From assembly GCA_029262415.1 (NCBI GenBank), contig JAJCZL010000001.1:53368-117367 (forward strand): 64,000 nucleotides of DNA. The letters are read 5' to 3'. Shown piece by piece: positions 5,118-62,395 of this stretch. The notes under the pieces are model-generated. The model was not told the DNA's origin, made no database searches, and was given only the letters and a program-made list of their open reading frames with translations. The position numbers were made by a program, and so were the translations under genes. Numbering within the stretch: position 1 is the stretch's first letter; the number at the start of each line of letters is the position of its first letter. This DNA is from Deltaproteobacteria bacterium (lineage in GTDB: Bacteria; Desulfobacterota; Binatia; UBA1149; JAJCZL01).

Positions 5118-6116
5118 ATGAACGCAAAAGATCCCGCCTATAGTTCAGTCGACGAGGTGCGCACGCGCCTGGCCGAACAAAAATACATCTGCGACCGTAA
5201 CATCGCGACAGTTGTGTACCTGGCCACGCAGCTGGAAAAACCCTTGCTGGTGGAGGGCCCGGCCGGTGTCGGCAAAACCGAACTCGCAAAGGTTATCGCC
5301 GCGAGCATCGATGCCGAGTTGATTCGACTGCAGTGCTACGAAGGGCTCGACGAAGCCAAGGCGTTGTACGAGTGGGAGTACGCCAAACAGCTGCTGTACA
5401 CGCAGATATTGAAGGAGAAGATCAGCGAGGTCACCGAAGGGACCAAGACGCTTTCGGAAGCAGTCGATCGTTTGACCGCTCAAGACGACGTGTTCTTTTC
5501 AAACCGCTTCGTATTACCGCGACCTTTGTTACAGGCCATCACCAACGAGCACCGCACGGTGCTGTTGATCGACGAGATCGACAAGGCCGATGCGGAGTTC
5601 GAGGCGTTCCTGTTGGAGATTCTCAGCGACTTTCAAGTTACGATCCCCGAGATCGGCACGATTGAGGCCAAACGTATCCCGATCGTGGTACTGACCAGTA
5701 ACAACGCCCGTGAGATGTCCGACGCGCTCAAACGTCGCTGCTTGCACCTATACATCGACTATCCAAGCCTGGAACTCGAACGAGAGATTCTGCGCGTGCG
5801 TATCCCTGGGCTTGCCGAGTCACTGGCGGGCGAGGTTACGGAGATCGTGCAGAAACTGCGTCTACTCGATCTCAAAAAGGCACCGAGCATCTCCGAAACG
5901 CTCGACTGGACCCGTGCTCTAGCGGTTATGAACATCTCCGATCTCGGTGATGACATCGTCAAAGATACGCTCTCGACGATCGCCAAATACGAAGGCGATC
6001 TGCGCAAAGCCGAGAAAGAGCTGGATACCCACGTCAAGAAAAAGCGCGCCGAAGCTGTGGCGGCATCCGGGGCGGCCGCGCAACCGGAGCAATCCGACAA
6101 GGACGTTCTCCACTAG
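5118..6116 (+). CDS. MoxR/CoxD-type AAA+ ATPase
   Basis: LLVEGPAGVGKTELAK, RLQCYEGLD, LLIDEIDKAD, DALKRRC; ATG 5118 preferred as start. Confidence 0.9.
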   Translation: MNAKDPAYSSVDEVRTRLAEQKYICDRNIATVVYLATQLEKPLLVEGPAGVGKTELAKVIAASIDAELIRLQCYEGLDEAKALYEWEYAKQLLYTQILKEKISEVTEGTKTLSEAVDRLTAQDDVFFSNRFVLPRPLLQAITNEHRTVLLIDEIDKADAEFEAFLLEILSDFQVTIPEIGTIEAKRIPIVVLTSNNAREMSDALKRRCLHLYIDYPSLELEREILRVRIPGLAESLAGEVTEIVQKLRLLDLKKAPSISETLDWTRALAVMNISDLGDDIVKDTLSTIAKYEGDLRKAEKELDTHVKKKRAEAVAASGAAAQPEQSDKDVLH

Positions 6117-6139
6117 GAAGCACTAGCTGGGCCGTATCT

Positions 6140-7543
6140 ATGGAATCGCGCATCATCGAGTTTGCCGGGGTCCTTCGACGACACGGCGTGCGCGTGTCAA
6201 CCGCAGAGACGCTCGATGCGTTGCGCGGCACCAACGTAACCGGCCTCGGCGACCGCGAGACCTTCCGCGCCACGCTGCGCGCAGCGATGGTCAAGCGCAC
6301 CAGCGATCTCGAGACCTACGAGAAGCTCTTCACGACTTTCTTCTCAGGACTCGGCGACCTTGTCGACGAACTCGCGAGTGCGTCGGCAGGGGAGATGAGC
6401 GACGCCGAGCTGCAAGACTTCCTCGATAGTCTACGCGACCTCATCGAAAACCAAGACATCGATATCTCTGATCTCGCCCGCGCGCTTGCCTTGCAAGACG
6501 CAGGCGCTCTCGAACAGATGCTGCGCGAACTCATGGACTCACGACCCATGCAAACTCCCCCCGGCGACAACCCCTCCCAGCAGGTCCGCGAGGCCGTCGA
6601 CGCGCTGGGTGCGCAGAGTCTGGCAGGGGAGTTCCAGCGGCTGATTCAAGCCGCCGAAGACGCAGGCATGAGCGAAGAGGCGCTCGAGAAGCTCAAAGAG
6701 TACCTTGCCCAACGCGCCAAAGACCTAGGCGAGATGATCAAGGGAATGCTGCGCTTCAAGCAAGAGCAAAAAGAGACGCCCGAACAGCAGGTCAAGGAGT
6801 TCGACCGTCTTCTCGACAAGAGCTTTTACTATCTGTCGCCGACGGAGATCAAGAAGATGCGTGAGGCAGTCACAGCGCTGGCGCGCAAGCTCAAGAACAT
6901 GATGGCGACGCGGCGCAAGCGTATGAAGCGCGGCCGACTCGACGTTAAGGGAACGCTGCGCTCATCGATGGAGTTCGGTGGTGTTCCGTTCCGTGTCCGT
7001 TACGAAAACAAGCGACGTGAGCGGCCGCAAATCGTCATCCTTTGCGATATATCGGATTCGGTCCGCAACGTCTCGCGTTTCATGCTGCAATTTGTTCACG
7101 GACTTCAAGATCTGTACTCGCGCGTGCGTAGCTACGTGTTCGTCGCCGACATCGCCGAGGTCACCAAACTGTTCTCCGACAACGACATCCAGACGGCGAT
7201 ACAGGGCGCGATCAACGGCGATTTTGTCAACGTCTATGCGCATTCCGATTTCGGACGTGCGTTCAAAAACTTTCACCGCGACCACCTCGAGGTCATAGAC
7301 GGACGTACCACGGTGATCATCCTCGGCGACGCCCGCAACAACTACAACGCCGCGCACGATTGGGCGATCCGCGATATTGCCGAAAGGGCGAAAAAAGTTA
7401 TCTGGCTCAACCCGGAGAACGCCTCAACATGGGGGTTCGGCGATAGTGAAATGGCGCTTTATAGCAAGCATTGCGACCTCGTCGAAGAGTGTAGAAATCT
7501 GCGCCAACTGTATAAGGTCGTTGACCATCTGGTAATGGACTAG
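6140..7543 (+). CDS. CoxE-like VWA-domain protein (partner of the MoxR ATPase)
   Basis: LCDISDSV MIDAS-like motif, SDFGRAF, IILGDARNNY; directly downstream of the AAA ATPase. Confidence 0.88.
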   Translation: MESRIIEFAGVLRRHGVRVSTAETLDALRGTNVTGLGDRETFRATLRAAMVKRTSDLETYEKLFTTFFSGLGDLVDELASASAGEMSDAELQDFLDSLRDLIENQDIDISDLARALALQDAGALEQMLRELMDSRPMQTPPGDNPSQQVREAVDALGAQSLAGEFQRLIQAAEDAGMSEEALEKLKEYLAQRAKDLGEMIKGMLRFKQEQKETPEQQVKEFDRLLDKSFYYLSPTEIKKMREAVTALARKLKNMMATRRKRMKRGRLDVKGTLRSSMEFGGVPFRVRYENKRRERPQIVILCDISDSVRNVSRFMLQFVHGLQDLYSRVRSYVFVADIAEVTKLFSDNDIQTAIQGAINGDFVNVYAHSDFGRAFKNFHRDHLEVIDGRTTVIILGDARNNYNAAHDWAIRDIAERAKKVIWLNPENASTWGFGDSEMALYSKHCDLVEECRNLRQLYKVVDHLVMD

Positions 7544-7643
7544 CCGCCCGACCGGGTGGGTTCGTGCACTATCGCAACGATGTGCACAAACTGTACTTCA
7601 AGCTGTTGACGATTGGGCGGTGCCCGGTCAGAATTCGAATCTG

Positions 7644-8183
7644 ATGGTTGCCAAGGAAGGATATGTGCGGATGCGGGTGGGTGGACTCACGCTCGATCCC
7701 GTCACCAAGACCCCGGTGGTGGTGCTGCGTGACGAGAAGGACAGCCTAAACCTGCCTATCTGGATCGGGTTGCTTGAGGCTACCTCGATGGCGACCGAGT
7801 TGGAGGGCATCAAAATGGCCCGTCCGATGACTCACGACCTGCTGCGCACGATGATTCAAGAGCTCGGCGCGCAGGTCGAACGCATCGAGGTCACCGAGTT
7901 GCGTGACAACACCTTTTTCGCGTCCATCCACCTGCAGGTAAACGGCGTGGTGATGAGGCTGGATTCGCGTCCCAGTGACGCCATAGCGCTGGCACTTCGC
8001 GTGGGTAGCCCTATCTTCGTGGCCGAGGCCGTTCTAGCTGCCTCTTCAACGCTGACCGAACAAAGCGCGACCGACGGCGATGGCGAGCCGGGCCCGGGCA
8101 AGGACATTTCCGATGTCAGTCCCGACGAATGGCAAGACATCCTTGAGAATCTCGATCCCGACGATTTCAAGTACAAGATGTAG
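7644..8183 (+). CDS. Bifunctional nuclease family protein (DUF151)
   Basis: LPIWIGLLEA, RPMTHDLL, DSRPSDAIALALR; start could be 7620 or 7644. Confidence 0.92.
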   Translation: MVAKEGYVRMRVGGLTLDPVTKTPVVVLRDEKDSLNLPIWIGLLEATSMATELEGIKMARPMTHDLLRTMIQELGAQVERIEVTELRDNTFFASIHLQVNGVVMRLDSRPSDAIALALRVGSPIFVAEAVLAASSTLTEQSATDGDGEPGPGKDISDVSPDEWQDILENLDPDDFKYKM

Positions 8184-8301
8184 CCCGACTCCGGCCGCCG
8201 ACAGGCGGCATCTACACCTAGCCCCCGAAAGGGGACCTGCCACGGGGCGCGTGCACCGAGACTTGTGAAATGGCGTCTAAGCACATAGTTTATCCCGCGC
8301 T

Positions 8302-8964
8302 GTGGCAGAGAAAGTTCAACGCGTACACATCGACCGTAAAGACCTCCGCGCACCCGACCCGTTCTTCGAGGCCGTCGGGGGGTTGCGCAAGAGCTTGGCT
8401 GAGAACCGCAATGCGGTCATTGCCGCGGGTGTGGCCGTACTGCTACTCTTCGTCGGCGTGCTCGCGCTGAACGGCTACCGGGCGCGCCGTACCGAACGTG
8501 CAGCTGCGGCGTTCTACCGGGCCACAGAATCGGTCGCGACCAACAGCCTTGAAGCTGCGAAGACGGTGTTCGCCGACCTCAACAAAAACGGGGCGCAACC
8601 TTACCGCGATCTGGCCGTGTTGTACGGTGCTGATATCGCCGTACGCGAGCAACGCTGGGACGACGCACTGAGCCTCTACCAGGGCTTTGTTGACGTAGCC
8701 GACAACGACTACCTGCGACAGATCGGAGTTCGCGGGCACGCCTACGCACTAGAGATGGCCGGCGACCTTGTCAGCGCTTCAAAGCGTTACGCCGAGGCCG
8801 CCGAGATCGACGGTCCCTACACCCTGGACTCGCTGCTCAGCCGCATCCGTACGGCCGATAAACTGGGCGACACCGCGGCAGCTGACGAAGCCGCAGCTGC
8901 TCTGGTTCAACGGTTCCCCGAAGCCGAACAAGCAGAAGAACTCGCCGCACGCACGCAGAACTGA
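8302..8964 (+). CDS. YfgM-like membrane-anchored TPR protein
   Basis: Single TM segment (VIAAGVAVLLLFVGVLAL) followed by TPR-like helices. Confidence 0.75.
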   Translation: MAEKVQRVHIDRKDLRAPDPFFEAVGGLRKSLAENRNAVIAAGVAVLLLFVGVLALNGYRARRTERAAAAFYRATESVATNSLEAAKTVFADLNKNGAQPYRDLAVLYGADIAVREQRWDDALSLYQGFVDVADNDYLRQIGVRGHAYALEMAGDLVSASKRYAEAAEIDGPYTLDSLLSRIRTADKLGDTAAADEAAAALVQRFPEAEQAEELAARTQN

Positions 8965-8986
8965 TCCGGCGCACAGGAGACCCACC

Positions 8987-9382
8987 ATGAATCGAAAAGC
9001 CGTTAATCCATGGCCCTGGTCACTGCAGTTCGGGTTCAATCAGGGAGAGCTCGTGCAAGACCAGCAACGCGTGTTGTTTTGCGCGGGCCAAACCTCAGTC
9101 GACGGCAGCGGGGCTCCCCAGCACGTAGACGACATGGGTGGCCAGGTCGAGCTTGCGCTCGATAACTTGGAGGCGGTGCTCAAAGCAGCCGACATGACTC
9201 TGGCCAACGTAGTCCGGCTCACCATATTCACGACCGATATGGACGCCGCCCTGGAGAATTTCGCCAAGCTTTCGGGCCGTCTCGGCGATGCCGGAGTCAC
9301 TCCCGCGCAAACTCTGATAGGCGTCGCGCGTCTGGCGTTCCCCGGCCTGATGATCGAGCTGGAAGCCACCGCTGTCGCCTGA
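8987..9382 (+). CDS. RidA/YjgF family protein
   Basis: RBS AGGAG, then ATG 8987; LFCAGQTS, QTLIGVARLAFPGLMIELEATA. Confidence 0.9.
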   Translation: MNRKAVNPWPWSLQFGFNQGELVQDQQRVLFCAGQTSVDGSGAPQHVDDMGGQVELALDNLEAVLKAADMTLANVVRLTIFTTDMDAALENFAKLSGRLGDAGVTPAQTLIGVARLAFPGLMIELEATAVA

Positions 9383-50960: not shown

Positions 50961-53525
50961 TCAGTCTTTGCAGGCGGTTTTCTTCGTCGTTGCCTTGCAG
51001 GGGACGCCGCGGGCGGTCAGGCAGTCATCCACGGCCGGATCGGCGCCGAACAACAAAGAGAACGAAAGCTCGCTTTGCAATAGGGCTCCGGTCACCTCGG
51101 TTCCTTTCATCGTGACGCGATACTTAGCGACGCCCTTGGACGGCACCTCGATTACCTTGACCTGGACGATGCCGTTGGCCGACGGAATCAACCCGGCCGA
51201 GTCGCGGAACCGGTACTTGCCGGCCGTTGCCGAGCTTTTGTCATCGAAGTCGGACGCGGCGATGGCGGCGGTATAGATGGTTTGCCCCGCTGCATCGCGC
51301 AGATCGACCAAGAGCCCCGTCACCGTCGGTGCCGAGCTGAAATCGGAGAGCGGCAGTTCTCCCTTGGCCTTGAGCCGGTCGTTGGCTGCTCCGTCCTTGA
51401 ACTTGACCGTGATCTTATTGCGCGAAGCCGCGCGTACGCCGTTGCTCTGGCATACACCGGCGCTACAGGTACCCGCCGGCGTGCAAAGGTCGCCGTCATT
51501 GCAAGTCGTGGCGCTCAAGTTCGCGTATACGCATCCGGTCGTGGCATTGCAGATGTCGTCGGTGCAGTCGTTGCCGTCGTCGCAGGCGGCGTCCGAGGGA
51601 GTGTGCTGGCAGACGTTACCGGGTCCGCAGGTGTCGACCGTGCAGGCGATGCCCTCCTCACAGGAAGCCAGATGTTCGCATGTGTGCGCGACGTTGTCGC
51701 AGGTATCGACAGTGCAGTCGTCGCCGTCGTCGCACAACGATACGCCGGGAAAGCCCGGAGTCCCGGCAACGCAGCCTTCGTCCTGGCATTGGCCGCTACA
51801 GAAGTCGCCGTCGGCCGTGTTGCCGTCATCGCAGCTCTCGTCCTGGTCGATCTCGGAGTTTCCGCACACCGAGCAGCCGCCGAGAGCCGGGTCGAGAACG
51901 AGCGAAACCGATGGAGCGACGGTTCCGGCGAGTATCGGCGGCTTATCGGCATCGCGGTATCTTATGTTGTTTTGGCCTTGCCAATAATCCGTCGATGTCC
52001 CGGCGATAAGCTGGGAACCTGCGTCCATGATCATGCTTTCGCGTATGACCAGGTCGTTGTCGCCGGCAGTTTCTTGCGGCGAGCCGTTCGCGTTGTCGAT
52101 TCGCCCACCGTCGAGCATCCTCAATCGGCACACATCGATTTCCGTGAAGCCGCCGTTGATGTCGGCGCCGTTTAGAATCTTGCCTCCGATGGTCACGTCA
52201 TTGCCGACCCGCAGATCCAGCATGCCACCGTAGCCGCCGTAGGCGTATTCGCCGGCGCCCGAGAGGTTGCGACCACGCACGTCGACCGTACCGTCGATCC
52301 TCACCGGACCGTCGGAGCGAATGGTCAACTCGGCGCCTGTTTTCGAGTGTCCGTCGATGAGCCCGCTCGACCCCACGGCTAAGCCTCCACCGTAGGCCTC
52401 GAAGTTCATCAAGCCACCCTGTCCGCAACGGCCCAGCCCTTGGGCGACGACCTCTCCATCCAGCGTGATCGTATCGCCGGAGAAGTACACGTTGGCGCCC
52501 AGGGGCTCGCCGCTACAACCACCGAAGCCGCTGTTGCCGATGAACTTGGCGTGGTCTTCGAATATGACGTTGCCGTCGGCGTAAAAAGTGCCGTAGCCGC
52601 CGTAGCCTTGGTACAGGTAGCCGTAATAGAGCACCGAGTTGCCGTTGGCGCTCAGCCGCGTCTTGTCGCCGGGGATCGTCGAGCCGGCGATGAGCAGGTC
52701 GCCGCCGGCGGAAAAGCCGATCGAACCGCCGGAGGCGCCGGAGACGTTACCGCCATTGCTGGTGATGTCATCGCCGACGGTGATGTTGCCGCTGGCCTCC
52801 AGTTGAGCGGCACCACCGCGTCCCCCGGAGAGTTCCATGCTCGCCCCGGTGCTGATGTCTTGCGAAGCTATCATGGTGACGTCGCCCGCATACTCGGCGT
52901 AGGTATAGCCGCTCGATGGTCCGGCATTGCCTTCGATTTTCGCGTTCGAGATCACCGATCCCGTGAACGACTCGATCTTGAGCGTGCCGGCATTGGCGCC
53001 GCCGACCGAACCGTCGATCTTGATCGTGCCCGAAAGAGTGACGTCGCCGGAGGCGTCGAGGACAACGTCGCCGCCCGGGTTGCCGCTGGCGATCAGCTTG
53101 CCGTCAAAATTGATGACGCCGCCCCCGACGCTGCAGGTGCCGACTGCGAGAACGCTGCAGGCGACATCGTCGAGACAGGCAACAGTGGGATCCCCGGAAC
53201 AGCCGCGTTGGGCGGTTACCGAGAACGTTCCTGCGGTCTGCCCGCCCAAGCGGAGGTCCACCGCAGTATTGTTAGCGCCCACGTCGACGAGAAAATCACC
53301 GCAGAGGACGCTGCTTGTCCCTTTCAATTGCCCGGCGCCGGTTACTTGCACCGTGCGCAGGCCGAAATCGAGAACGCCGGGGGGTAGTACTTCGACCACG
53401 TCGCTGATCACGCAGGGATCGGCAGTGGGAGCGCAGACATCGTCGGGGCCGTTGGCGACGATGATCGCGCCGGCCGGAACGGCGAAAACCCAAGTCAGGA
53501 GAGTCGCGTACAGAGTCTTACTCAT
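50961..53525 (-). CDS. Large secreted Gly-rich protein with Cys-rich repeats (adhesin-like)
   Basis: Sec signal ending PAGA; Gly/Ser/Asn-rich region; CGNSEIDQDESCDDGNTADGDFCSGQC (Myxococcus cysteine-rich repeat-like); four CDDGxxCTxDxC-type repeats. Confidence 0.8.
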   Translation of the reverse strand: MSKTLYATLLTWVFAVPAGAIIVANGPDDVCAPTADPCVISDVVEVLPPGVLDFGLRTVQVTGAGQLKGTSSVLCGDFLVDVGANNTAVDLRLGGQTAGTFSVTAQRGCSGDPTVACLDDVACSVLAVGTCSVGGGVINFDGKLIASGNPGGDVVLDASGDVTLSGTIKIDGSVGGANAGTLKIESFTGSVISNAKIEGNAGPSSGYTYAEYAGDVTMIASQDISTGASMELSGGRGGAAQLEASGNITVGDDITSNGGNVSGASGGSIGFSAGGDLLIAGSTIPGDKTRLSANGNSVLYYGYLYQGYGGYGTFYADGNVIFEDHAKFIGNSGFGGCSGEPLGANVYFSGDTITLDGEVVAQGLGRCGQGGLMNFEAYGGGLAVGSSGLIDGHSKTGAELTIRSDGPVRIDGTVDVRGRNLSGAGEYAYGGYGGMLDLRVGNDVTIGGKILNGADINGGFTEIDVCRLRMLDGGRIDNANGSPQETAGDNDLVIRESMIMDAGSQLIAGTSTDYWQGQNNIRYRDADKPPILAGTVAPSVSLVLDPALGGCSVCGNSEIDQDESCDDGNTADGDFCSGQCQDEGCVAGTPGFPGVSLCDDGDDCTVDTCDNVAHTCEHLASCEEGIACTVDTCGPGNVCQHTPSDAACDDGNDCTDDICNATTGCVYANLSATTCNDGDLCTPAGTCSAGVCQSNGVRAASRNKITVKFKDGAANDRLKAKGELPLSDFSSAPTVTGLLVDLRDAAGQTIYTAAIAASDFDDKSSATAGKYRFRDSAGLIPSANGIVQVKVIEVPSKGVAKYRVTMKGTEVTGALLQSELSFSLLFGADPAVDDCLTARGVPCKATTKKTACKD

Positions 53526-54385
53526 GGCTGAGCATCAGATACGCGGCTGCGCATGGCACCGCGGGCGTTGTTGTCGCTTGTCGATCCCTTCGTGACTTGG
53601 TGACGCCCGCGTACGACGATACCGTGGCCCCCGTTATCGACCGAGACCACGCCGCTGATATCGTTACCGCGACCGTCGGAGACGACACCGTGGCTGCCGT
53701 TGCCTGCTGCGCGGCCGTCGACGAGTGCCCCGCGTGACTTGAGCCGGATTCCGGCGCCGGCGTTTCGCTCGGCGCGAACGCCAACGAGTCGACCCCCCTC
53801 TCCGGACATGCGTAGGCCGTCACCGCCGTTCTGTATCGCGGCGACGTCGACCAGTACGACGCCGGCCGAGCGAATGTGCACGCCGTGATGCCGGCAGCCA
53901 TTAGTTTGCACACGTTCCACGCGACGCAGGCTGTTCTTGCGCGTCGCGAGAATGCCGGTACCGAAACCGACGACCTGCCCCACCTCGCTGCCGGTTCCGC
54001 CGATGATCAACGCGCCTTCGCTGCCGCCGCTCTCGACGCGGATGCCGACTCCGTAGCTGGTTCCCAAGATCGACAGGCCGGCGAGATCGACGGTTATGTT
54101 CTCGGCCAGAGAAGGGGCTCTGACGACCAGACCGTTCAAACGGCAGCGTGTCGTCACGACCGGGTCGTCCGCTCGTAGAGTGGTGTCACCGGCGACGATG
54201 TCTCCGCACGCGCACGCGACCCGCACACCGCCGATGTCGTCGCCGCAAATGGTGGCAGCAGCCGTTTGCACTCCTATTAATGCGGCGCCGAGAAGAACCG
54301 AAGCGGAGGACAAAGCGACCGCGGGCAACACTCCGACGCGGCGGACCCTCGTTGGTTGCGATTTGGCCACGGTAGAGGCTAGCAA
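53522..54385 (-). CDS. Secreted right-handed beta-helix protein
   Basis: Signal peptide; repeated NxGxGI/NGGDG units; stop overlaps the ATG of the downstream gene. Confidence 0.75.
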   Translation of the reverse strand: MLASTVAKSQPTRVRRVGVLPAVALSSASVLLGAALIGVQTAAATICGDDIGGVRVACACGDIVAGDTTLRADDPVVTTRCRLNGLVVRAPSLAENITVDLAGLSILGTSYGVGIRVESGGSEGALIIGGTGSEVGQVVGFGTGILATRKNSLRRVERVQTNGCRHHGVHIRSAGVVLVDVAAIQNGGDGLRMSGEGGRLVGVRAERNAGAGIRLKSRGALVDGRAAGNGSHGVVSDGRGNDISGVVSVDNGGHGIVVRGRHQVTKGSTSDNNARGAMRSRVSDAQP

Positions 54386-56022: not shown

Positions 56023-57552
56023 ATGCCCATCTTACCGAGGCTGCCGCAACGTGTGCTCGCCGGGCGAGGCGGTTGTATATCCGCTAGGCGCCTGGTCGAG
56101 TATCACCTGTTCGAACGGCTCGGCCGCACAATTCTCCTGAACGTCGAGACCATGCTGTTTTACGAGGCCACGCTACTGGTGCGTGAACTCGTCGAGCAGC
56201 TGGCCACCGAAGCGGAAGTCGATCCGATCTACGCCATGGGCCGGAGATATCCGCGCGCCGAGGTCGAGCAAGCGTTGGCCTATCTCGAGCGGGAAGGATT
56301 CCTGCGATCACCGGACGAAGCCGACCATCGCCCGGCTCCACCACTAAGGAAGCGGCGCGGTATCCGCCACCTGGAATTGATGGTCACGCATGGCTGTAAC
56401 ATGGGTTGCCGCTACTGTTACGGTGCTTACGGCGAGGCCGGGTGGAGCGATGCCCCGCACCTGTACGGATCGCAGAGCAAGGGCATGTCGCTTGAGACGG
56501 CGCTTCGGGGAGTCGATTTCCTGTTTCGCGAATCCGGCACGAACCGCGACTTAAGCCTGATTTTCTTCGGCGGCGAGCCGTTGCTCGAACTGAATCTGAT
56601 ACGCCGGATCGTCCCCTATGTCCGTCAACGCGAAGCAGAGACCGGCAAAACAGTTAGCTTGTCCCTGTCTACTAACGGAACGTTGCTCAGCGAGAAGGTC
56701 GTCGAGTTCCTCGTCGCCAATCGCATCGGCTGCCAGGTTTCGATCGACGGCGGAAAGGAAGTCCAGGATCGCAACCGACCGTTGCGCGGCGGCATGGCCT
56801 CCTACGATCGAATGCTTCCCGGCGTTCAACGGCTGATCGAGGCGCGACCGGGACGGGTTCGCGCGCGTGCGACGGTTGCTCACGACGAAGTGCAGGTAGT
56901 CGAGATAGTCGAGCATCTGCTCGGCCTCGGCTTTGGCTCGGTCCATGCCGAACCCGCTGTGGGTGGTCCTGAGGGCATGGCCGTGAGCGAAAGCGACGTC
57001 AGGGCAATCATGTGTCAAAACGAGAAGCTAGCCGGCAACTTGGTCGAGAGCGTGCGCGCGGACCGGCGATTAGACTACGCCAACCTAGTCCGCTTTGTTC
57101 GCCAGACCCGTGTTGTGCGTGAGCGCCTGGCTTACTATTGCGGTGCGGCCCGGACCTACCTGGCGCTATCGCAGGACGGGGCGTTCTATCCCTGCCACCG
57201 TTTCGTCGGTATGGACGACTACCGCATGGGCGATCTCGAAAATGGTCTCGATCTTCGCCTGCAAGACAGGATTCTGGCGCTTACGGTCGATGCGCGTGCC
57301 ACATGTAAGGATTGCTGGGCCCGGTACTTTTGTGGTGGTGGTTGCTGGAAGCACGCCGTCGACAACAGCGGCGGTCTCGAGCGGCCCGAAGAGGAGGTGA
57401 GTTGCCGGATCATCCGCCACACGATCGAGTGCGCGATGGCAATCAACACCGAGCTGCGCCTGATCGATGCCGAGGTCCTCGGTGACGGCACCGACCCGGC
57501 CGCTGTCGACCGCTACGGTCGGGCGCGCCCGGAGGTAAAGGCCGGTGCGTAG
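56023..57552 (+). CDS. Radical SAM/SPASM maturase with an N-terminal RRE (PqqD-like) domain; PapB/CteB/QhpD-like
   Basis: CNMGCRYC at 56395-56418, FFGGEPLL, STNG, SIDG; SPASM YCGA...YPCHRF...CKDCWARYFCGGGC...C; N-terminal YHLFE...LLNVE...EQALAYLEREGFL RRE-like segment. Confidence 0.93.
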   Translation: MPILPRLPQRVLAGRGGCISARRLVEYHLFERLGRTILLNVETMLFYEATLLVRELVEQLATEAEVDPIYAMGRRYPRAEVEQALAYLEREGFLRSPDEADHRPAPPLRKRRGIRHLELMVTHGCNMGCRYCYGAYGEAGWSDAPHLYGSQSKGMSLETALRGVDFLFRESGTNRDLSLIFFGGEPLLELNLIRRIVPYVRQREAETGKTVSLSLSTNGTLLSEKVVEFLVANRIGCQVSIDGGKEVQDRNRPLRGGMASYDRMLPGVQRLIEARPGRVRARATVAHDEVQVVEIVEHLLGLGFGSVHAEPAVGGPEGMAVSESDVRAIMCQNEKLAGNLVESVRADRRLDYANLVRFVRQTRVVRERLAYYCGAARTYLALSQDGAFYPCHRFVGMDDYRMGDLENGLDLRLQDRILALTVDARATCKDCWARYFCGGGCWKHAVDNSGGLERPEEEVSCRIIRHTIECAMAINTELRLIDAEVLGDGTDPAAVDRYGRARPEVKAGA

Positions 57553-58597
57553 ACGAAGGTTCTTGAGTTGGTTGCTGCGCCTTACCGGCGGCTGTTTCAC
57601 GGTTGCTGCGGGGATTGGCGCGGCGCCGTTGGCGCGAATCAACACCGTGTTGCTCGGTGAGGCCTGGGCGCAAGAGCCGTGCACCGAGGACATGTGTGCG
57701 ACGCGCGATGCGTGCGCGCTAGGAGACACGATCGGGCATACATGTGAGCTGCGCGACATCTGTGACACGGACGAATCGGGAGACTGCGCTGGAGATGTCT
57801 GTAGCAGCGATCGGTCGGAGGACTGCCGCGGCGATTCCTGCCAGTCCGACAACTCCGGTTCTTGTAACAGCGACAACTGCGATAGCGATTCGTCGGGGAG
57901 CTGCCGCAGTGATCAGTGCACGGATGATTCCTCGGGAGACTGTACCAGTGATCAGTGCGATACGGATAGTGTTGATTGTATCGGGGACGCGTGCACCACC
58001 GACGAGATCTGCCCGAGCGAGGTTTGCGGCGATGACGTTCCCGCTTGCGTTTCCGATTCTTGTTCGACGGATGCCTCAGGAAGCTGCGTCAGCGACGACT
58101 GCTCGGCGGATACCTCGGGCGCGTGCGCTAGCGACTCTTGCACGAACGATAGCTCGGGCAGTTGCCGCGGCGACAGTTGTCAAAGCGACGATTCCGGAAG
58201 TTGCCGGAACGATGCATGCACGACGCAGGACAGCTCGGTTTCCTGCAGATCCGACGCTTGCGACATCGATGGTGCGGGGTCGTGTGTCGCCGACGGCTGT
58301 GCCACGGATGGCGCAGGTGCCTGCACAGCCGACCGCTGCCAGGCCGACGGGTCGGGAGACTGTGCATCGCAGGACATCTGTGTAGTGGACGCATCATCGC
58401 TGTGCGGAAGTGACCTGTGCCGCGACGACCGCAGTCCGTCTGAGTGTACGGCAAAGGATACCTGCGCACTCGACTTGGCCGAGAACAGGCATTCGGTACG
58501 CCGGCACCTGGCGCGAAAGGATATTGACCGGGCGACAAAGTGGCTCTACGGGCTGTCGGCGACAGTCTTTTGGCTCGGAGGAAGTTGGTCGGGATAA
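57545..58597 (+). CDS. Twin-arginine-signal Cys/Asp repeat protein A (putative radical SAM substrate)
   Basis: RRRRFL, AWA-QEPC cleavage site; 41 Cys in residues 46-310, each followed by D/E at +3 or +4; hydrophobic C-terminus; GTG overlaps the radical SAM stop. Confidence 0.85.
   Translation: MRRRRFLSWLLRLTGGCFTVAAGIGAAPLARINTVLLGEAWAQEPCTEDMCATRDACALGDTIGHTCELRDICDTDESGDCAGDVCSSDRSEDCRGDSCQSDNSGSCNSDNCDSDSSGSCRSDQCTDDSSGDCTSDQCDTDSVDCIGDACTTDEICPSEVCGDDVPACVSDSCSTDASGSCVSDDCSADTSGACASDSCTNDSSGSCRGDSCQSDDSGSCRNDACTTQDSSVSCRSDACDIDGAGSCVADGCATDGAGACTADRCQADGSGDCASQDICVVDASSLCGSDLCRDDRSPSECTAKDTCALDLAENRHSVRRHLARKDIDRATKWLYGLSATVFWLGGSWSG
57680..58474 (+). repeat. About 13-aa tandem repeat C-x2-D-x-C-x2-D-x-S-G-x (protein A)
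   Basis: For example CQSDNSGSCNSDNCDSDSSGSCRSDQCTDDSSGD. Confidence 0.9.
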
Positions 58598-58651
58598 AAT
58601 GGAGCGTTAAAGGCACGAGGATCGGCGCCGGATTTATGACGGAGTAGGCCA

Positions 58652-60664
58652 ATGCTCAGAAGAAAGTTCCTCAGATGGATCGTCGGGTTCGGCGGCGGTT
58701 ACTTCACGGTTGCAGCAGGGACCGGCGTTGCGCCATTGTTGCGAATCAACACGGCGTTACTTACCGAGGCCCGCGCGCAAGAGCCCTGCGGCCAGGATAC
58801 CTGCACGATCTCGGACGTGTGCCAAGCTGACAGCGTCGGTCATACCTGCCAGGTACGCGACGTATGCGACGAGGACGGCTCAGGTGACTGCACCAACGAC
58901 GAGTGCACCCAAGATGCATCGCTCGACTGCAGCGGCGACCGCTGCATAAGCGACGCTTCGGGTTCTTGCACGAACGACGGCGGTCCCGCCTGCACCGACG
59001 ACCAGAGCTGCCCGGCTGACGAAGTGGGTTGCCGCGATGATTACTCGGGCGTCTGCGGTTCGGACAGCTCGGGTACTTGTACGAACGACTCCTGCGGCTC
59101 GGACAGTTCGAAAGAGTGTCAGAGTGACATCTGCGCCGCCGACTCATCGGGCAGTGGAGATACGGATTTCTGCGTTGCCGATAGCTCCGGTGGGTGCCAA
59201 AACGACGACTGCGTTTCCGACAAATCTGGTGATTGTGGGAACGACCTGTGCCTCAGCGATAAATCGGGCCAATGCACCGGCGATCGTTGCCGCAGCGACA
59301 GTTCAGGGGACTGCACGAACGACGGCGGTCCGGCATGCATCGAGGATCAGAGCTGCCCGGCCGACGAAGTTGGCTGCCGCGATGATTACTCGGGCGTCTG
59401 CAGTTCGGACAGCTCAGGGTCTTGCACCAACGACTCCTGCGGCTCGGACAGCTCGAAAGGCTGTCAGAGTGACATCTGTCTCGCCGACTCGTCGGGCGAC
59501 GGTAGTACCGATTTTTGCATTGCTGACAGTTCCGGGCAGTGCGACGTAGATAGCTGCATTTCAGATAGATCGGGTTCTGGGAACCACGACGACTGCCTTT
59601 CAGATAGTTCCGGAGCCTGCACGGAGGACCTCTGCAGATCAGACAGCTCCGGCGACTGTACCGGCGACCGCTGCCGCTTGGACTCCTCGGGAATCTGCAC
59701 TGAACACGACGTGTGCGTACGGGATGCGTCGTTTCCTTGCGCGAGCGACCTGTGTAGGGACGACCGCAGCCCGGCCGACTGTGCAGCCAAGGACACGTGC
59801 GCGCTCGACTTGGCAGGCAACGGCCGATCGACGGGCCGGCGCCTCGCCCGCGCAGGGCTCAGTCGAACGTTGCACTGGTTATACGGAATTTCCTCGCTCG
59901 CGCTCGCTGTCGCGCTCGGGCACGGCGTCGCGCGCGCTGCCGTCGTGATCGACGCTACCGATGCCGTCTTCTTCCCGGATGTGACCTACGCGACTGGACA
60001 AACGGTTAGCGTGGGCGCACCGGTAGGGCCGTTTCTGCGCGACTGTGACGACGACGGCAGCCTCGAGGCCGATACCAACGGCGACGGCGCTTGCAGCGGT
60101 GATCCTGAGGTGGATGACTTCAATGGCGACGGCAGCCGTGAACTGCCGCCGGCTACGGCCTTGTCCGGAAACTACGAGTTCACCTGCTTTTTTATCCCCG
60201 ATGATGTCGCGATCATCGTAACCGGCCCGCTCAGCGTGACGGCATCGATGGAGGTCGCGGTGTTCGGTGTGCTGAGGCTTGCGTCGGGAGCCGATGTATC
60301 TTCGTCGGCGATGATCGATACGCGCACGAGTGCCTGGCTGTCCGAGGACGGCTCGCCGATCAACCTGACTACAGGGCTTGTCGGGACCATCGACGAGAGC
60401 GACAGCGGCTTCGACGGTAGAGAAGGTGTGCCGCCGATTTTGTACACGAGCCTTTGCGATACGAACGGGCTGTGCGGTGACGCCAACTCCGACGGTCGTA
60501 TCACCGCGACGGACGCCTTGGCGGTTCTCAAGAACGCCGTTGGTCTGGGCGTGTGTTCCGCTGCCGTTTGCGACGTGAATTCCTCGGGCGGCGTGACGGC
60601 GACCGACGCACTTCTGGTTCTCCAGAAAGCGGTGGGCGTGGCGGTGACCCTGGACTGTCCTTGA
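58652..60664 (+). CDS. Twin-arginine-signal Cys/Asp repeat protein B with a C-terminal dockerin-like domain
   Basis: LRRKFL, ARA-QEPC; 48 Cys in residues 46-386, each followed by D at +3 or +4; second RR-plus-hydrophobic segment; GDANSDGRITATDAL...DVNSSGGVTATDAL duplicated dockerin-like motif at 60473-60661. Confidence 0.87.
   Translation: MLRRKFLRWIVGFGGGYFTVAAGTGVAPLLRINTALLTEARAQEPCGQDTCTISDVCQADSVGHTCQVRDVCDEDGSGDCTNDECTQDASLDCSGDRCISDASGSCTNDGGPACTDDQSCPADEVGCRDDYSGVCGSDSSGTCTNDSCGSDSSKECQSDICAADSSGSGDTDFCVADSSGGCQNDDCVSDKSGDCGNDLCLSDKSGQCTGDRCRSDSSGDCTNDGGPACIEDQSCPADEVGCRDDYSGVCSSDSSGSCTNDSCGSDSSKGCQSDICLADSSGDGSTDFCIADSSGQCDVDSCISDRSGSGNHDDCLSDSSGACTEDLCRSDSSGDCTGDRCRLDSSGICTEHDVCVRDASFPCASDLCRDDRSPADCAAKDTCALDLAGNGRSTGRRLARAGLSRTLHWLYGISSLALAVALGHGVARAAVVIDATDAVFFPDVTYATGQTVSVGAPVGPFLRDCDDDGSLEADTNGDGACSGDPEVDDFNGDGSRELPPATALSGNYEFTCFFIPDDVAIIVTGPLSVTASMEVAVFGVLRLASGADVSSSAMIDTRTSAWLSEDGSPINLTTGLVGTIDESDSGFDGREGVPPILYTSLCDTNGLCGDANSDGRITATDALAVLKNAVGLGVCSAAVCDVNSSGGVTATDALLVLQKAVGVAVTLDCP
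58967..59656 (+). repeat. 345-bp (115-aa) internal tandem duplication in protein B
   Basis: CTNDGGPAC...CPADEVGCRDDYSGVC starts at 58967 and again at 59312; the register holds to 59656. Confidence 0.9.
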
Positions 60665-60692
60665 AGGAGCCGTAGGGTACCGGAGCAGAAAT

Positions 60693-61196
60693 ATGAATCT
60701 TGACATTCACGAACGCGACGTCGAACCAATACTCTGCCGTACCTGTGCGGCTTGCTGCAGGGTTACGCTATCGCTGCGCGATACGGTGTCGCGATACCGG
60801 TGTTTCCTCAGGCAGATAGGCTACGAAGTGCTGCCTCCACGCACGTCGACGAGTGCCGATTGTTGCGACAAGCGGCACGATGCACGCCTGGACATGGGGT
60901 ACTGCAAGTACCTTGAGATCGGCAATACGCCCGCGACAACCGCGTACCGCTGTCGCATTTACGAAAGCGAAGAGATGCCGCAGCTCTGTACCGACTACAA
61001 TTGTGTGAGCTGGGCCAAGGCGAACGATACCTACAACGAGAAAAACGCCACCCTGGTCAAGGCGCAGGAGGCTCTCGAGCGGCTACGCTCGAACGGCGCA
61101 GTAGGTACCGTAAGCAGTTCTGGAGGGCGCGAAGCCCTTGCTTGCCCGCTAAATCAAGTGGAGACTACGAAGGGGGCAGGCAAATGGATAGGATAG
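60693..61196 (+). CDS. YkgJ/CxxCxxCC-family Cys-cluster (Fe-S or Zn) protein
   Basis: CRTCAACC, DCC, YCKYL, CRIYE...PQLCTDYNC. Confidence 0.78.
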   Translation: MNLDIHERDVEPILCRTCAACCRVTLSLRDTVSRYRCFLRQIGYEVLPPRTSTSADCCDKRHDARLDMGYCKYLEIGNTPATTAYRCRIYESEEMPQLCTDYNCVSWAKANDTYNEKNATLVKAQEALERLRSNGAVGTVSSSGGREALACPLNQVETTKGAGKWIG

Positions 61197-61600
61197 AATG
61201 GAGTGACAGACTCAGCGTTGGCGTTAAACAGCTTGATGAACAACACATCCGTATCATCCGCATGATCAACCGCATGATCGATCACGTGAATAGCCAGATT
61301 GCTGTCGATGATTGGGATATTATCTCTGACACGCTCTTTGAGATGACGCAGTATTCTCAGGATCACTTCGATTGCGAAGAGGCACTCATGAACAGGTACG
61401 GATACCCAAAGGGCGATCACCAGGAGGAACTCCACATGGAGTTCCTGGAGACAACCGTTGAGCTTTCCCGAACTCTGGAATCCCCCACGAAACACTCGCT
61501 TGAAGAGTTACTTGCATATCTAGGGAATTGGTGGGTTGGGCACATCCTTGGAGAGGATATGCAATATAAGCTATTTTTCGCCGACCACGGCGTGACATAG
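61184..61600 (+). CDS. Bacteriohemerythrin
   Basis: EWSDRLSVGVKQLDEQH, HFDCEEALM, GYP, HILGED; ATG 61184 overlaps the upstream stop. Confidence 0.92.
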   Translation: MDRIEWSDRLSVGVKQLDEQHIRIIRMINRMIDHVNSQIAVDDWDIISDTLFEMTQYSQDHFDCEEALMNRYGYPKGDHQEELHMEFLETTVELSRTLESPTKHSLEELLAYLGNWWVGHILGEDMQYKLFFADHGVT

Positions 61601-61758
61601 TAGAACAAAGCGCAACCTCGAACCCGTCACCCGAATTGGGACACGCGACGACGCGGCTTCTCGGGCAGCGCCGGATCTACCAACTCGCGCACCTCGGCCA
61701 ACCGCCTTTGCGAACATTAAGGTAGCGATAGAGACTTATGCCGTAACTACCTGATAAG

Positions 61759-61832
<74 letters not shown>

Positions 61833-61852
61833 TCACCGGCGAATAGAGAGTT

Positions 61853-62395
61853 CTAGCCTTTGGAGGAGCCGCCTGCAAAAGACCGCACGATGTGCTCGTG
61901 GGGTGAGCCTCCGACGCGCACGTCGGTGACCGCTATGCGCGGAAACGGGTCGCCGGGGTGCGGCGTGACCGCCGACATCAGATTCACGACAACGCGGAAC
62001 TGGGCGTCGCTCAGTTCTATATCGCTATAGGCTTCGAACACGCATTCGGCGAGATCGGTCGGGCCGTCAAAACCCGTCGCGCTGAACCAGCCGCTGCGCA
62101 GCGAGGCTTCGTCGAGCCGGTGGTTGAACGACGCCGAGACGCCTGCGGAAAGTAGGCTCTTACATTCCACGTTGACGCTGTCGCCGACGAAGCGACCCAC
62201 CGGAGCGTACTGCACTACGTATTGCAGTGCGCCTACCGAGACTTCATCGAGAATCCCGAAGGTAACAACAAAATGGGTCTTGCCCTGTTTGGCCGAGACT
62301 GTGTTTGCGCCGGCCGCAGCGGCGGCAAGCGCCATCGCAACCAAAGCAACTGCTGCCCAGAACCCTTGTGACTTTGTAAGAAACCCTTTGCCCAC
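61853..62395 (-). CDS. Secreted protein, cohesin-like beta-sandwich
   Basis: Signal peptide; GALQYVVQY...FVG...VEC...FN...L..G..SATGFDGPTDLAECVF pattern. Confidence 0.55.
   Translation of the reverse strand: MGKGFLTKSQGFWAAVALVAMALAAAAAGANTVSAKQGKTHFVVTFGILDEVSVGALQYVVQYAPVGRFVGDSVNVECKSLLSAGVSASFNHRLDEASLRSGWFSATGFDGPTDLAECVFEAYSDIELSDAQFRVVVNLMSAVTPHPGDPFPRIAVTDVRVGGSPHEHIVRSFAGGSSKG

Follow-up and report, generated by a model that had tools for sequence, protein, structure and literature searches.

Thioether crosslinking is known mainly from small peptides, and the first protein-sized example was published in 2026. Here, we analyze a candidate system of this type, encoded at positions 56023 to 61600 of a 64,000-nucleotide (nt) stretch of DNA, referred to below as the window (contig JAJCZL010000001.1, positions 53,368 to 117,367; Deltaproteobacteria bacterium, assembly GCA_029262415.1). 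As an earlier note on this DNA had described, and as the open reading frames (ORFs) confirmed, five genes follow one another on the forward strand: (i) a radical S-adenosylmethionine (SAM)/SPASM enzyme of 509 amino acids (56023 to 57552; ORF and domain matches), termed the maturase below; (ii) repA (57545 to 58597, GTG start, 8-nt overlap with the maturase gene), for a Cys-Asp repeat protein of 350 amino acids; (iii) repB (58652 to 60664, after a 54-nt gap), for a 670-residue protein that combines such repeats with an extracytoplasmic-type module; (iv) ORF4 (60693 to 61196, after a 28-nt gap), for a divergent CxxCxxCC (YkgJ/PF03692-type) cysteine cluster protein of 167 amino acids; and (v) a bacteriohemerythrin gene (61184 to 61600, 138 amino acids, 13-nt overlap with ORF4). 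Our comparison makes it likely that the maturase and the repeat proteins form a two-component maturation system, in which a cytoplasmic enzyme with a recognition element (RRE) for ribosomally synthesized, posttranslationally modified peptides (RiPPs), a radical SAM domain, and a SPASM domain would staple Cys to Asp in one or several large repeat proteins.

The closest described systems each share some features with this locus. (i) PapB is likewise a radical SAM/SPASM thioether maturase, and in PapA (freyrasin) it links a Cys donor to a C-terminal Asp acceptor in tandem, nonoverlapping rings. PapB requires the acceptor to be C-terminal to the donor and accepts spacings from i+1 to i+7, and the CxxD spacing of the window repeats is thus within its proven reach (PMC12373016). 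With its six CXXXD rings, PapA is a small peptide, whereas the window proteins have 350 to 670 amino acids (relatives up to about 1,000) and 41 to 57 sites, mostly CxxD; in addition, the window maturase is in a separate clade, and its putative substrates have a twin-arginine (RR)-type leader and are fused to folded domains. (ii) CrpC of Methanococcus voltae, described in September 2026, is a TIGR04463 RRE-radical SAM-SPASM enzyme that forms ranthionine links in the 28.8-kDa protein CrpA, which contains 10 copies of a 17-residue unit of the C-X-X-Q/D type with mixed acceptors, and its authors reported similar clusters across all domains of life (PMC13692751). The likeness extends to a protein-scale Cys-rich repeat target, an RRE-radical SAM-SPASM enzyme, paralogous substrates that share a leader-like N-terminal region, and the C-X-X-Q/D motif. 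The two systems differ in the enzyme family (the window maturase scores 68.9 bits on TIGR04463, for a cutoff of 525) and in the archaeal host, and the Tat-like leader, internal signal, and C-domain of the window family have not been described for Crp. (iii) QhpD, which has an RRE and acts on a leader-bearing protein subunit, QhpC, forms Cys-Asp (S-C-beta) and Cys-Glu links in a product that is periplasmic (PMC13692751). It belongs to the same group of thioether maturases and also makes Cys-Asp/Glu links in a protein; it forms no more than three links, however, which are long-range and lie in a small subunit of an enzyme. QhpD has the dedicated partner genes qhpA, qhpB, qhpE, and qhpF; a qhp-like protease or exporter is not conserved at window-type loci, where the repeat proteins are the only conserved neighbors. 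(iv) CteB, the maturase of the SCIFF peptide CteA (thermocellin), provides the closest solved structure including the RRE (5WGG/5WHY), and SCIFF maturases are on an adjoining branch. SCIFF peptides have about 45 amino acids and six Cys residues, and their acceptor is Thr, not Asp. (v) The HXS antiphage system (HxsA with His-x-Ser repeats, radical SAM enzymes HxsB and HxsC) resembles the window system, as proposed here, in having a repeat protein with a signal peptide, and it differs in chemistry, repeats, and enzyme family. HxsA is matured by cytoplasmic radical SAM/SPASM enzymes and then acts in the periplasm (PMC13128918).

In literature searches, we found no description of the window family and only one paper on a comparable system, that on Crp, which has a different enzyme family; no curated hidden Markov model (HMM) names the maturase clade or the repeat protein. 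The earlier view that the architecture is undescribed therefore stands for the family, which no HMM covers, but has to be narrowed because CrpA/CrpC is a precedent for ranthionine formation at protein scale (PMC13692751). The window family is set apart by its enzyme clade, the 13-residue unit, a pairing rule with very few exceptions, a high site number (as many as 57 repeat Cys per protein), the RR leader, and the combination of internal signal and C-domain.

Genomic distribution and enzyme-substrate pairing

Orthologues of the maturase form more than 100 clusters that share 43 to 63% identity with it. We compared 32 loci with such orthologues (the family) with 53 loci encoding distant relatives of 27 to 36% identity (the outgroup). 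A downstream Cys-Asp repeat ORF on the same strand was present in 32 of 32 family loci versus 0 of 53 outgroup loci, so that the orthologues always neighbor CxxD repeat genes, a point that the earlier note had suggested checking. The start of the repeat gene lies at -8 to +22 nt from the maturase stop codon in 24 of the 27 loci in which a start could be placed; L007 (165 nt), L008 (4.3 kb), and L012 are the exceptions. In a maximum-likelihood tree of 81 enzymes, the maturases with repeat neighbors formed one clade on a long stem (Shimodaira-Hasegawa-like approximate likelihood ratio support of 100), consistent with a single change of state. True SCIFF maturases occupy the neighboring branch, and the enzyme of outgroup locus L035 scored 550 bits on TIGR03974. 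According to the record labels, the clade spans about seven phyla, its members being labeled as Thermodesulfobacteriota, "Deltaproteobacteria" metagenome-assembled genomes (MAGs) under Myxococcota, Nitrospirota, Brocadiaceae, Acidobacteriota, Hydrogenedentota, and one betaproteobacterium. The family is widespread among uncultured members of the Thermodesulfobacteriota, Nitrospirota, anammox Planctomycetota, Acidobacteriota, and Hydrogenedentota.

All-against-all clustering of the ORFs from 33 loci revealed that only the maturase and the repeat protein are conserved, and it returned no conserved protease, transporter, or small SCIFF peptide gene. The five genes therefore do not form the five-gene system proposed before, since ORF4 recurs in only four other loci and the hemerythrin in none. 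Because the linkage is strict, the repeat-associated enzymes form a single clade, and the repeat proteins share a conserved leader, RepA and RepB are by far the best substrate candidates for the maturase, in line with the earlier proposal, and we consider the predicted enzyme-substrate pairing well supported by comparison. Queries of protein databases with the leader region gave almost no matches; these searches are uninformative on family size, as their candidates are bound by query length and few five-residue words are shared.

Several loci had particular arrangements. L008, from a Brocadiaceae MAG, is the only locus in which complete genes separate the maturase from the repeat genes: two secreted beta-propeller-like repeat proteins are encoded at 6028 to 9085, between the maturase and two Cys-Asp repeat genes. 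At L012, the first recognizable leader lies 2.1 kb from the maturase, and the space between them is taken up by repeat and C-domain ORFs that have no leader and probably represent a frameshifted copy. The Desulfobulbaceae locus L003 (9486 to 11034 and 11222 to 12949) encodes two short repeat proteins of 222 and 261 amino acids, which end with F-P-W-N-L-F-L-P-x-I-x-G-x in place of the junction and C-domain described below; a signal peptide-bearing FG-GAP protein follows.

Classification of the maturase

The maturase matched Radical_SAM (PF04055; 49.3 bits, cutoff 29.5) in Pfam and SPASM (TIGR04085; 60 bits, cutoff 27) in NCBIfam. Cysteines C125, C129, and C132 of its CX3CX2C motif (amino acids 125 to 132, positions 56395 to 56418) are invariant among the orthologues, as are seven Cys within the SPASM domain (amino acids 373 to 461, 57139 to 57405), and C470 is nearly so. 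The first 18 or so amino acids are of low confidence, and there is an alternative GTG start at 56053. The top-scoring NCBIfam family models are all Cys-thioether maturases, namely, TIGR04064 (nif11 type; 295.3 bits, E = 7e-88, cutoff 518.7), TIGR03974 (SCIFF; 271.2 bits, E = 2e-80, cutoff 425), NF047865 (PapB; 268.6 bits, E = 7.5e-80, cutoff 340), and TIGR03906 (QhpD; 264.8 bits, E = 1.3e-78, cutoff 453), each remaining below its cutoff; the score for HxsB (TIGR03978) was 95 bits (cutoff 370).

The closest solved structure is CteB (5WGG), which aligned over amino acids 27 to 475, including the CteB RRE, with an E value of 1e-61. We also built an AlphaFold2 model on 22 orthologues (pLDDT [predicted local distance difference test] score of 84, predicted template modeling score of 0.85). 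The modeled N-domain (about amino acids 27 to 100, 56101 to 56322) has a beta3-alpha3 arrangement, with strands at 27 to 32, 35 to 40, and 45 to 48 and helices at 51 to 62, 68 to 72, and 78 to 90, and the pLDDT values of 10-residue blocks are 86 to 95 over amino acids 21 to 90. The top fold match was again CteB (E = 4e-35, template modeling scores of 0.87 to 0.90, with 0.90 on the target, 459 to 468 alignment columns). In the model, the N-domain thus has the PqqD-like winged-helix form of an RRE and is predicted to bind the leader. Taken together, the HMM scores, the homology to CteB, and the modeled fold agree with the earlier assignment: the maturase is an RRE-radical SAM-SPASM protein of the CteB/PapB/QhpD/nif11 thioether-forming group.

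A Cys-Asp rule in the repeat proteins

The repeat core of RepA covers amino acids 46 to 312 (57680 to 58480) and contains 41 Cys, followed by Asp in 34 CxxD and 6 CxxxD motifs and by Glu in 1 CxxE motif. That of RepB (amino acids 46 to 392, 58787 to 59827) contains 48 Cys, in 44 CxxD and 4 CxxxD motifs. The earlier counts of 41 and 48 potential crosslink sites are thus exact, and all 89 core Cys have Asp or Glu at position +3 or +4. Composition-preserving shuffles contained on average 7.7 (RepA) and 9.3 (RepB) CxxD motifs, with a maximum of 18 in 5,000. The spacing between Cys alternates between 5 and 8 residues, resulting in a 13-residue unit of the type C-x-x-D-x-C-x-S-D-S-S-G-x. Both cores are strongly acidic (pI of about 4), with some 15% Cys, 20% Asp, and 18% Ser; aromatic residues are absent from the RepA core, and neither core matched a Pfam or NCBIfam model. 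The two proteins share 59% identity over their first 110 amino acids. Within repB, a 300-nt segment is duplicated (58858 to 59157 and 59203 to 59502; 78% identity, 345-nt spacing); the duplicated block of about 115 amino acids holds an atypical C-T-N-D-G-G-P-A-C...C-P-A-D-E-V-G-C stretch.

This rule extends to the whole family. Among 1,367 repeat-region Cys of 41 distinct ORFs, 1,175 (86.0%) have Asp at +3, for a background frequency of 18%, for another 172 (12.6%), Asp occurs at +4 alone, 13 carry just Glu, and 7 carry neither residue. Asp is therefore found at +3 or +4 of 1,347 Cys (98.5%), and Asp or Glu is found at these positions of 1,360. Secondary Asp peaks at -2 and -5, each involving only half of the Cys, result from the 5/8 spacing. 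Where the Asp at +3 is lost (192 Cys), one is present at +4 in 172 cases, which is the kind of compensation that would be predicted for a donor-acceptor pair. The remaining positions of the unit are highly variable (3.4 to 3.7 bits). In the table of 13-mer entropies, the zero values at C and D are forced by the pattern used to cut out the units, and the unbiased figures are the Cys-centered counts given here. RepA and RepB show the features of a ranthipeptide-type substrate, with a Cys donor, a C-terminal Asp/Glu acceptor, and repeats behind a leader. Indirect as they are, these data strongly suggest that every Cys is destined for linkage with its own Asp, and Cys-Asp thioethers are probably formed at most sites.

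Segments flanking the repeats

The leaders of RepA (amino acids 1 to 42, 57545 to 57670) and RepB (amino acids 1 to 42, 58652 to 58777) are typical of the family, in which about 42 residues are conserved, starting with M-x-R-R-x-F-L-x-W. A weakly hydrophobic stretch rich in Gly, Ala, and Thr follows (mean best 12-residue Kyte-Doolittle value of 1.54), then P-L-x-R-[IV]-N and, in about two-thirds of the leaders, AxA at 2 to 5 residues before the first core Cys; in RepA, these elements read RRRRFLSW, PLARIN, and AWA around the weak hydrophobic stretch. The uncharged stretch has 8 to 22 amino acids, and the RRxFLxW motif is present. R4, L29, and N33 are invariant across phyla, which points to specific recognition by a protein, presumably the RRE.

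In most members, the repeats are followed by (i) a DLCRxD...DTCALD junction, (ii) a basic, amphipathic LNxAxRWLY segment, (iii) a more hydrophobic segment of 12 to 20 residues that ends with AxA (mean maximal 12-residue Kyte-Doolittle value of 2.34), (iv) a conserved beta-rich domain, VIDA...GPFLRDCDxDGxLEADTNGDG, and (v) variable C-terminal modules. In RepB, a basic n-region and a Sec-like h-region, ending with ARA followed by A, lie at about amino acids 396 to 429 (59837 to 59938), and the C-domain is at 431 to 585 (59942 to 60406). The variable module is a type I dockerin (PF00404; 31.2 bits, cutoff 22.9) at 609 to 656 (60476 to 60619), and other members carry TIG or Ca-binding-like repeats. 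RepA terminates within the internal hydrophobic segment; its tail (amino acids 313 to 350) is basic and amphipathic with a short hydrophobic end. At L005, the C-domain is encoded by a gene of its own, and the hydrophobic segment is its N-terminal signal peptide. AlphaFold2 modeled the C-domain with confidence (pLDDT above 90 over some 155 residues); a Foldseek search of the Protein Data Bank with it found nothing below an E value of 0.1, only weak beta-solenoid, ice-binding, and adhesin look-alikes.

Proposed maturation model and alternatives

In the two-component system that we propose, the RRE of the maturase would bind the conserved leader of about 42 residues, as suggested by homology to CteB, PapB, and QhpD. 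The enzyme would then move along the core and, at each C-x-x-D (sometimes C-x-x-x-D) motif, take a hydrogen atom from the beta-carbon of Asp. The Cys sulfur would be joined to this carbon, giving thioether (ranthionine) rings of four or five residues. The product would contain up to 41 (RepA) or 48 (RepB) consecutive rings, two in each 13-residue unit, and would retain the Asp carboxylates; the stapled domain would be a rigid, strongly acidic rod with crosslinks that cannot be reduced. Export would make use of the Tat-like leader, with cleavage at AxA before the first Cys; this is the least certain step, and its chances are about even. The exported rod, with its beta-rich C-domain and dockerin, Ig-like, or Ca-binding modules, might serve as an envelope or surface structure of anaerobic biofilm bacteria. 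Of this model, the comparison shows the class and domain composition of the enzyme, its strict pairing with repeat genes in the genomes, and a Cys-Asp(+3/+4) rule that is close to absolute; we infer which bond is formed, how many sites are used, and what becomes of the product. A more speculative version, which we find rather unlikely, is that the single RR leader has a double role in RRE recognition and export, the RRE holding back the signal until stapling is completed, like a Tat proofreading chaperone; the products would then be redox-proof polyanionic rods with 40 to 60 thioethers per chain, far above the six of freyrasin and the three of QhpC, used as structural or mineral-binding elements of the envelope or biofilm in anaerobes of at least seven phyla, where disulfides cannot survive.

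A number of observations weigh against this model. (i) The maturase is under the trusted cutoff of every characterized family, and its chemistry could therefore differ: the link might be to C-alpha or to some other acceptor atom, or only a few of the sites might be used. (ii) CrpC modified only some of its motifs in vitro (PMC13692751). (iii) The repeats could alternatively bind metals or Ca2+. (iv) The Tat model TIGR01409 (cutoff 16.7) did not match the RepA and RepB leaders and, of the 10 leaders tested, scored just 2, at 13.5 and 14.1 bits. (v) With its positive N-terminal side and AxA, the Sec-like signal after the repeats implies that the repeat domain ends in the cytoplasm. (vi) Only DNA sequencing runs, and no RNA runs, were found to cover the locus.

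Points iv and v bear on topology. Two N-in/C-out signals that flank one domain cannot both be used in a simple way: either the repeats remain in the cytoplasm, with the leader serving as nothing more than an RRE ligand, or in the fused proteins the membrane is not spanned by the internal segment. The Tat signal claimed for RepA and RepB has therefore to be reduced to a Tat-like sequence, by motif only, and simple Tat export conflicts with the Sec-type signal. According to the best surviving alternative, to which we give a little less than an even chance, the enzyme-substrate pair is the same, and the repeats are never exported. The RR leader would be solely the ligand of the RRE, the rod would lie on the cytoplasmic face of the membrane, and the Sec-like segment would be a signal anchor or cleavable signal that places the C-domain outside; split forms would have a soluble cytoplasmic rod. 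The internal segment indeed looks canonical, having a net-positive n-region, an h-region of 12 to 20 residues that is more hydrophobic than the leader, and AxA, and at L005 it is used as a signal peptide on its own. The leader stretch is weak, with just 8 to 12 uncharged residues in Hydrogenedentota, and the invariant L29 and N33 are atypical for signal peptides. Against cytoplasmic repeats, RRxFL[KR]W fits the Tat consensus in most members, and AxA lies 2 to 5 residues ahead of the first core Cys in about two-thirds of the leaders. Moreover, split loci secrete the partner C-domain, so that the two halves would end up in different compartments, and we see no obvious function in the cytoplasm for a rod that lacks aromatic residues and has a pI of about 4.

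The nature of the repeats is the subject of a second alternative, which we consider improbable: the repeats would chiefly form a metal- or Ca2+-binding or disulfide-rich module, the maturase would modify a few residues or catalyze another reaction, and the site count would be misleading. The modified region might, for example, be the conserved first module, C-x-[ED]-D-x-C...G-H-T-C...D-x-S-G-D-C, whose conservation far exceeds that of the units after it. The D-x-S-G motif and the abundance of Asp recall Ca-binding repeats, the scores below every family cutoff fit a different reaction, and CrpC modification is partial and heterogeneous in a cluster that is induced on pyrite, a hint of metal binding (PMC13692751). 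However, simple chelation would tolerate Glu, His, and other spacings, whereas the +3/+4 Asp rule holds for 98.5% of the repeat Cys in about seven phyla, with loss at +3 usually matched at +4; furthermore, the repeat genes are never next to outgroup enzymes.

We consider it very improbable that RepA and RepB are multicore RiPP precursors that are stapled and then cut into many small cyclic thioether peptides. Multicore precursors are known in other RiPP classes, and tandem units as short as 13 residues would suit such a precursor; but no protease or transporter is conserved in the 33 loci, there is no conserved flanking cleavage motif, the variable positions differ from unit to unit, and the core usually continues, in the same reading frame, into a conserved folded C-domain. 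Finally, the maturase might be an anaerobic sulfatase-maturating enzyme (anSME) for the divergent sulfatase family gene (PF00884; 54500 to 55864, reverse strand) that lies 158 nt upstream in the opposite orientation and has counterparts at L021 and L031, a reading that is practically refuted by the score on TIGR03942 (90.5 bits, cutoff 349), by the anSME fold match, which ranks second, far under CteB, and lacks the N-domain, by T-R-P-A-H at the position where formylglycine sulfatases have C/S-x-P-x-R, and by the distribution, since the orthologues do not track sulfatases (homologues upstream in only 2 of the 32 loci).

If the stapling model is correct, few polypeptides described so far would carry as many enzymatic crosslinks as the repeat proteins. 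With their simple, regular rule, in which Cys pairs with the Asp three residues on, they would be good model proteins for studying how radical SAM enzymes process a long substrate, how RiPP recognition is scaled to proteins, and how crosslinked cargo is targeted to or across the membrane. Since thioether rings resist reduction, the family may show how strict anaerobes stabilize exposed proteins without disulfides. The leader and the 13-residue units might also provide a genetically encoded, modular stapling cassette for protein engineering.

Genomic surroundings

The sequence was matched by independent Logan contigs from four runs of one biofilm metagenome study. The 39-nt DNA units of the repeats are mutually only 61 to 72% alike, and Tandem Repeats Finder called no array of 39-nt units; the Cys-Asp repeats are old and diverged. 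The locus is therefore not a collapsed repeat, and this divergence, along with the agreeing contigs, rules out an assembly artifact. There are GGAG-type ribosome-binding sites 5' of repA, repB, and ORF4, and a scan of the locus for promoters and terminators gave results at chance level. The only PADLOC matches were generic ones of the radical SAM core to viperin models, and we found no evidence of a defense system.

The assignment of ORF4 as a CxxCxxCC protein holds at the level of the motif but was not matched by a direct hit, the score on PF03692 being 7.4 bits (E = 9.8, cutoff of 23 not reached). Of eight remote relatives tested, six (phmmer E values of 1e-12 to 3e-6) pass this cutoff with 27 to 35.5 bits, and the relative P0164 (E = 1.9e-5) is just under it with 22.9 bits, which makes ORF4 a divergent PF03692 relative by transitive homology. 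An exhaustive HMMER search found only 50 representatives among 1.8 billion proteins. Homologues next to the system were present at only four other loci (L007, L019, L021, and L031), and homologues are also found beside unrelated genes; ORF4 is therefore an optional accessory and not a core component. Two close homologues (47% and 40% identity) are located away from any radical SAM/Cys-Asp locus (L086, 5113 to 7558; L087, 277 to 2455), one adjoining a TPR-sulfotransferase gene and the other near a NifU-like gene that is two small ORFs downstream. Another remote relative, P0160 (670 amino acids), consists of a LanC-like (lanthionine cyclase-type) domain and a C-terminal CxxCxxCC domain, and four relatives of 740 to 833 amino acids that resemble it match ORF4 at their C-terminal end. 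P0160 ties this little-understood domain to another class of thioether-forming enzymes.

The hemerythrin was identified correctly (NF033749; 100.9 bits, cutoff 84), and its start is almost certainly the ATG at 61184, with AAGGGGG just 5' of it. No hemerythrin homologue was present in the 85 related loci; the gene is a local addition that is not conserved with the system. As local accessories, ORF4 and the hemerythrin perhaps provide Fe-S or redox support. Upstream of the maturase, the sulfatase family protein, with Thr at the motif position, probably uses a Thr nucleophile or is otherwise not of the formylglycine type.

The G+C content dips to 0.53 to 0.57 across 61000 to 62000, and a tRNA-Arg(CCT) gene (61758 to 61832, reverse strand) lies directly past the hemerythrin gene. 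Next to it, the reverse strand encodes a 180-amino-acid protein (61853 to 62395) with a hydrophobic N-terminal segment and a weak, subthreshold resemblance to the F-type pilin TraA (E = 0.002 to 0.02). On the other side of the system, also on the reverse strand, there are genes for a 287-amino-acid protein with no family match (53522 to 54385) and, overlapping it by 4 nt, for an 854-amino-acid protein (50961 to 53525). By eye, the latter has a hydrophobic, signal-like N terminus; it contains repeats of two kinds, Gly-rich beta-helix-like ones and Cys-rich acidic ones (TIGR02232 myxo_disulf_rpt, Dicty_CTDC), and is thus a second Cys/Asp-rich protein of the extracellular type near the system, with a repeat type other than that of RepA and RepB.

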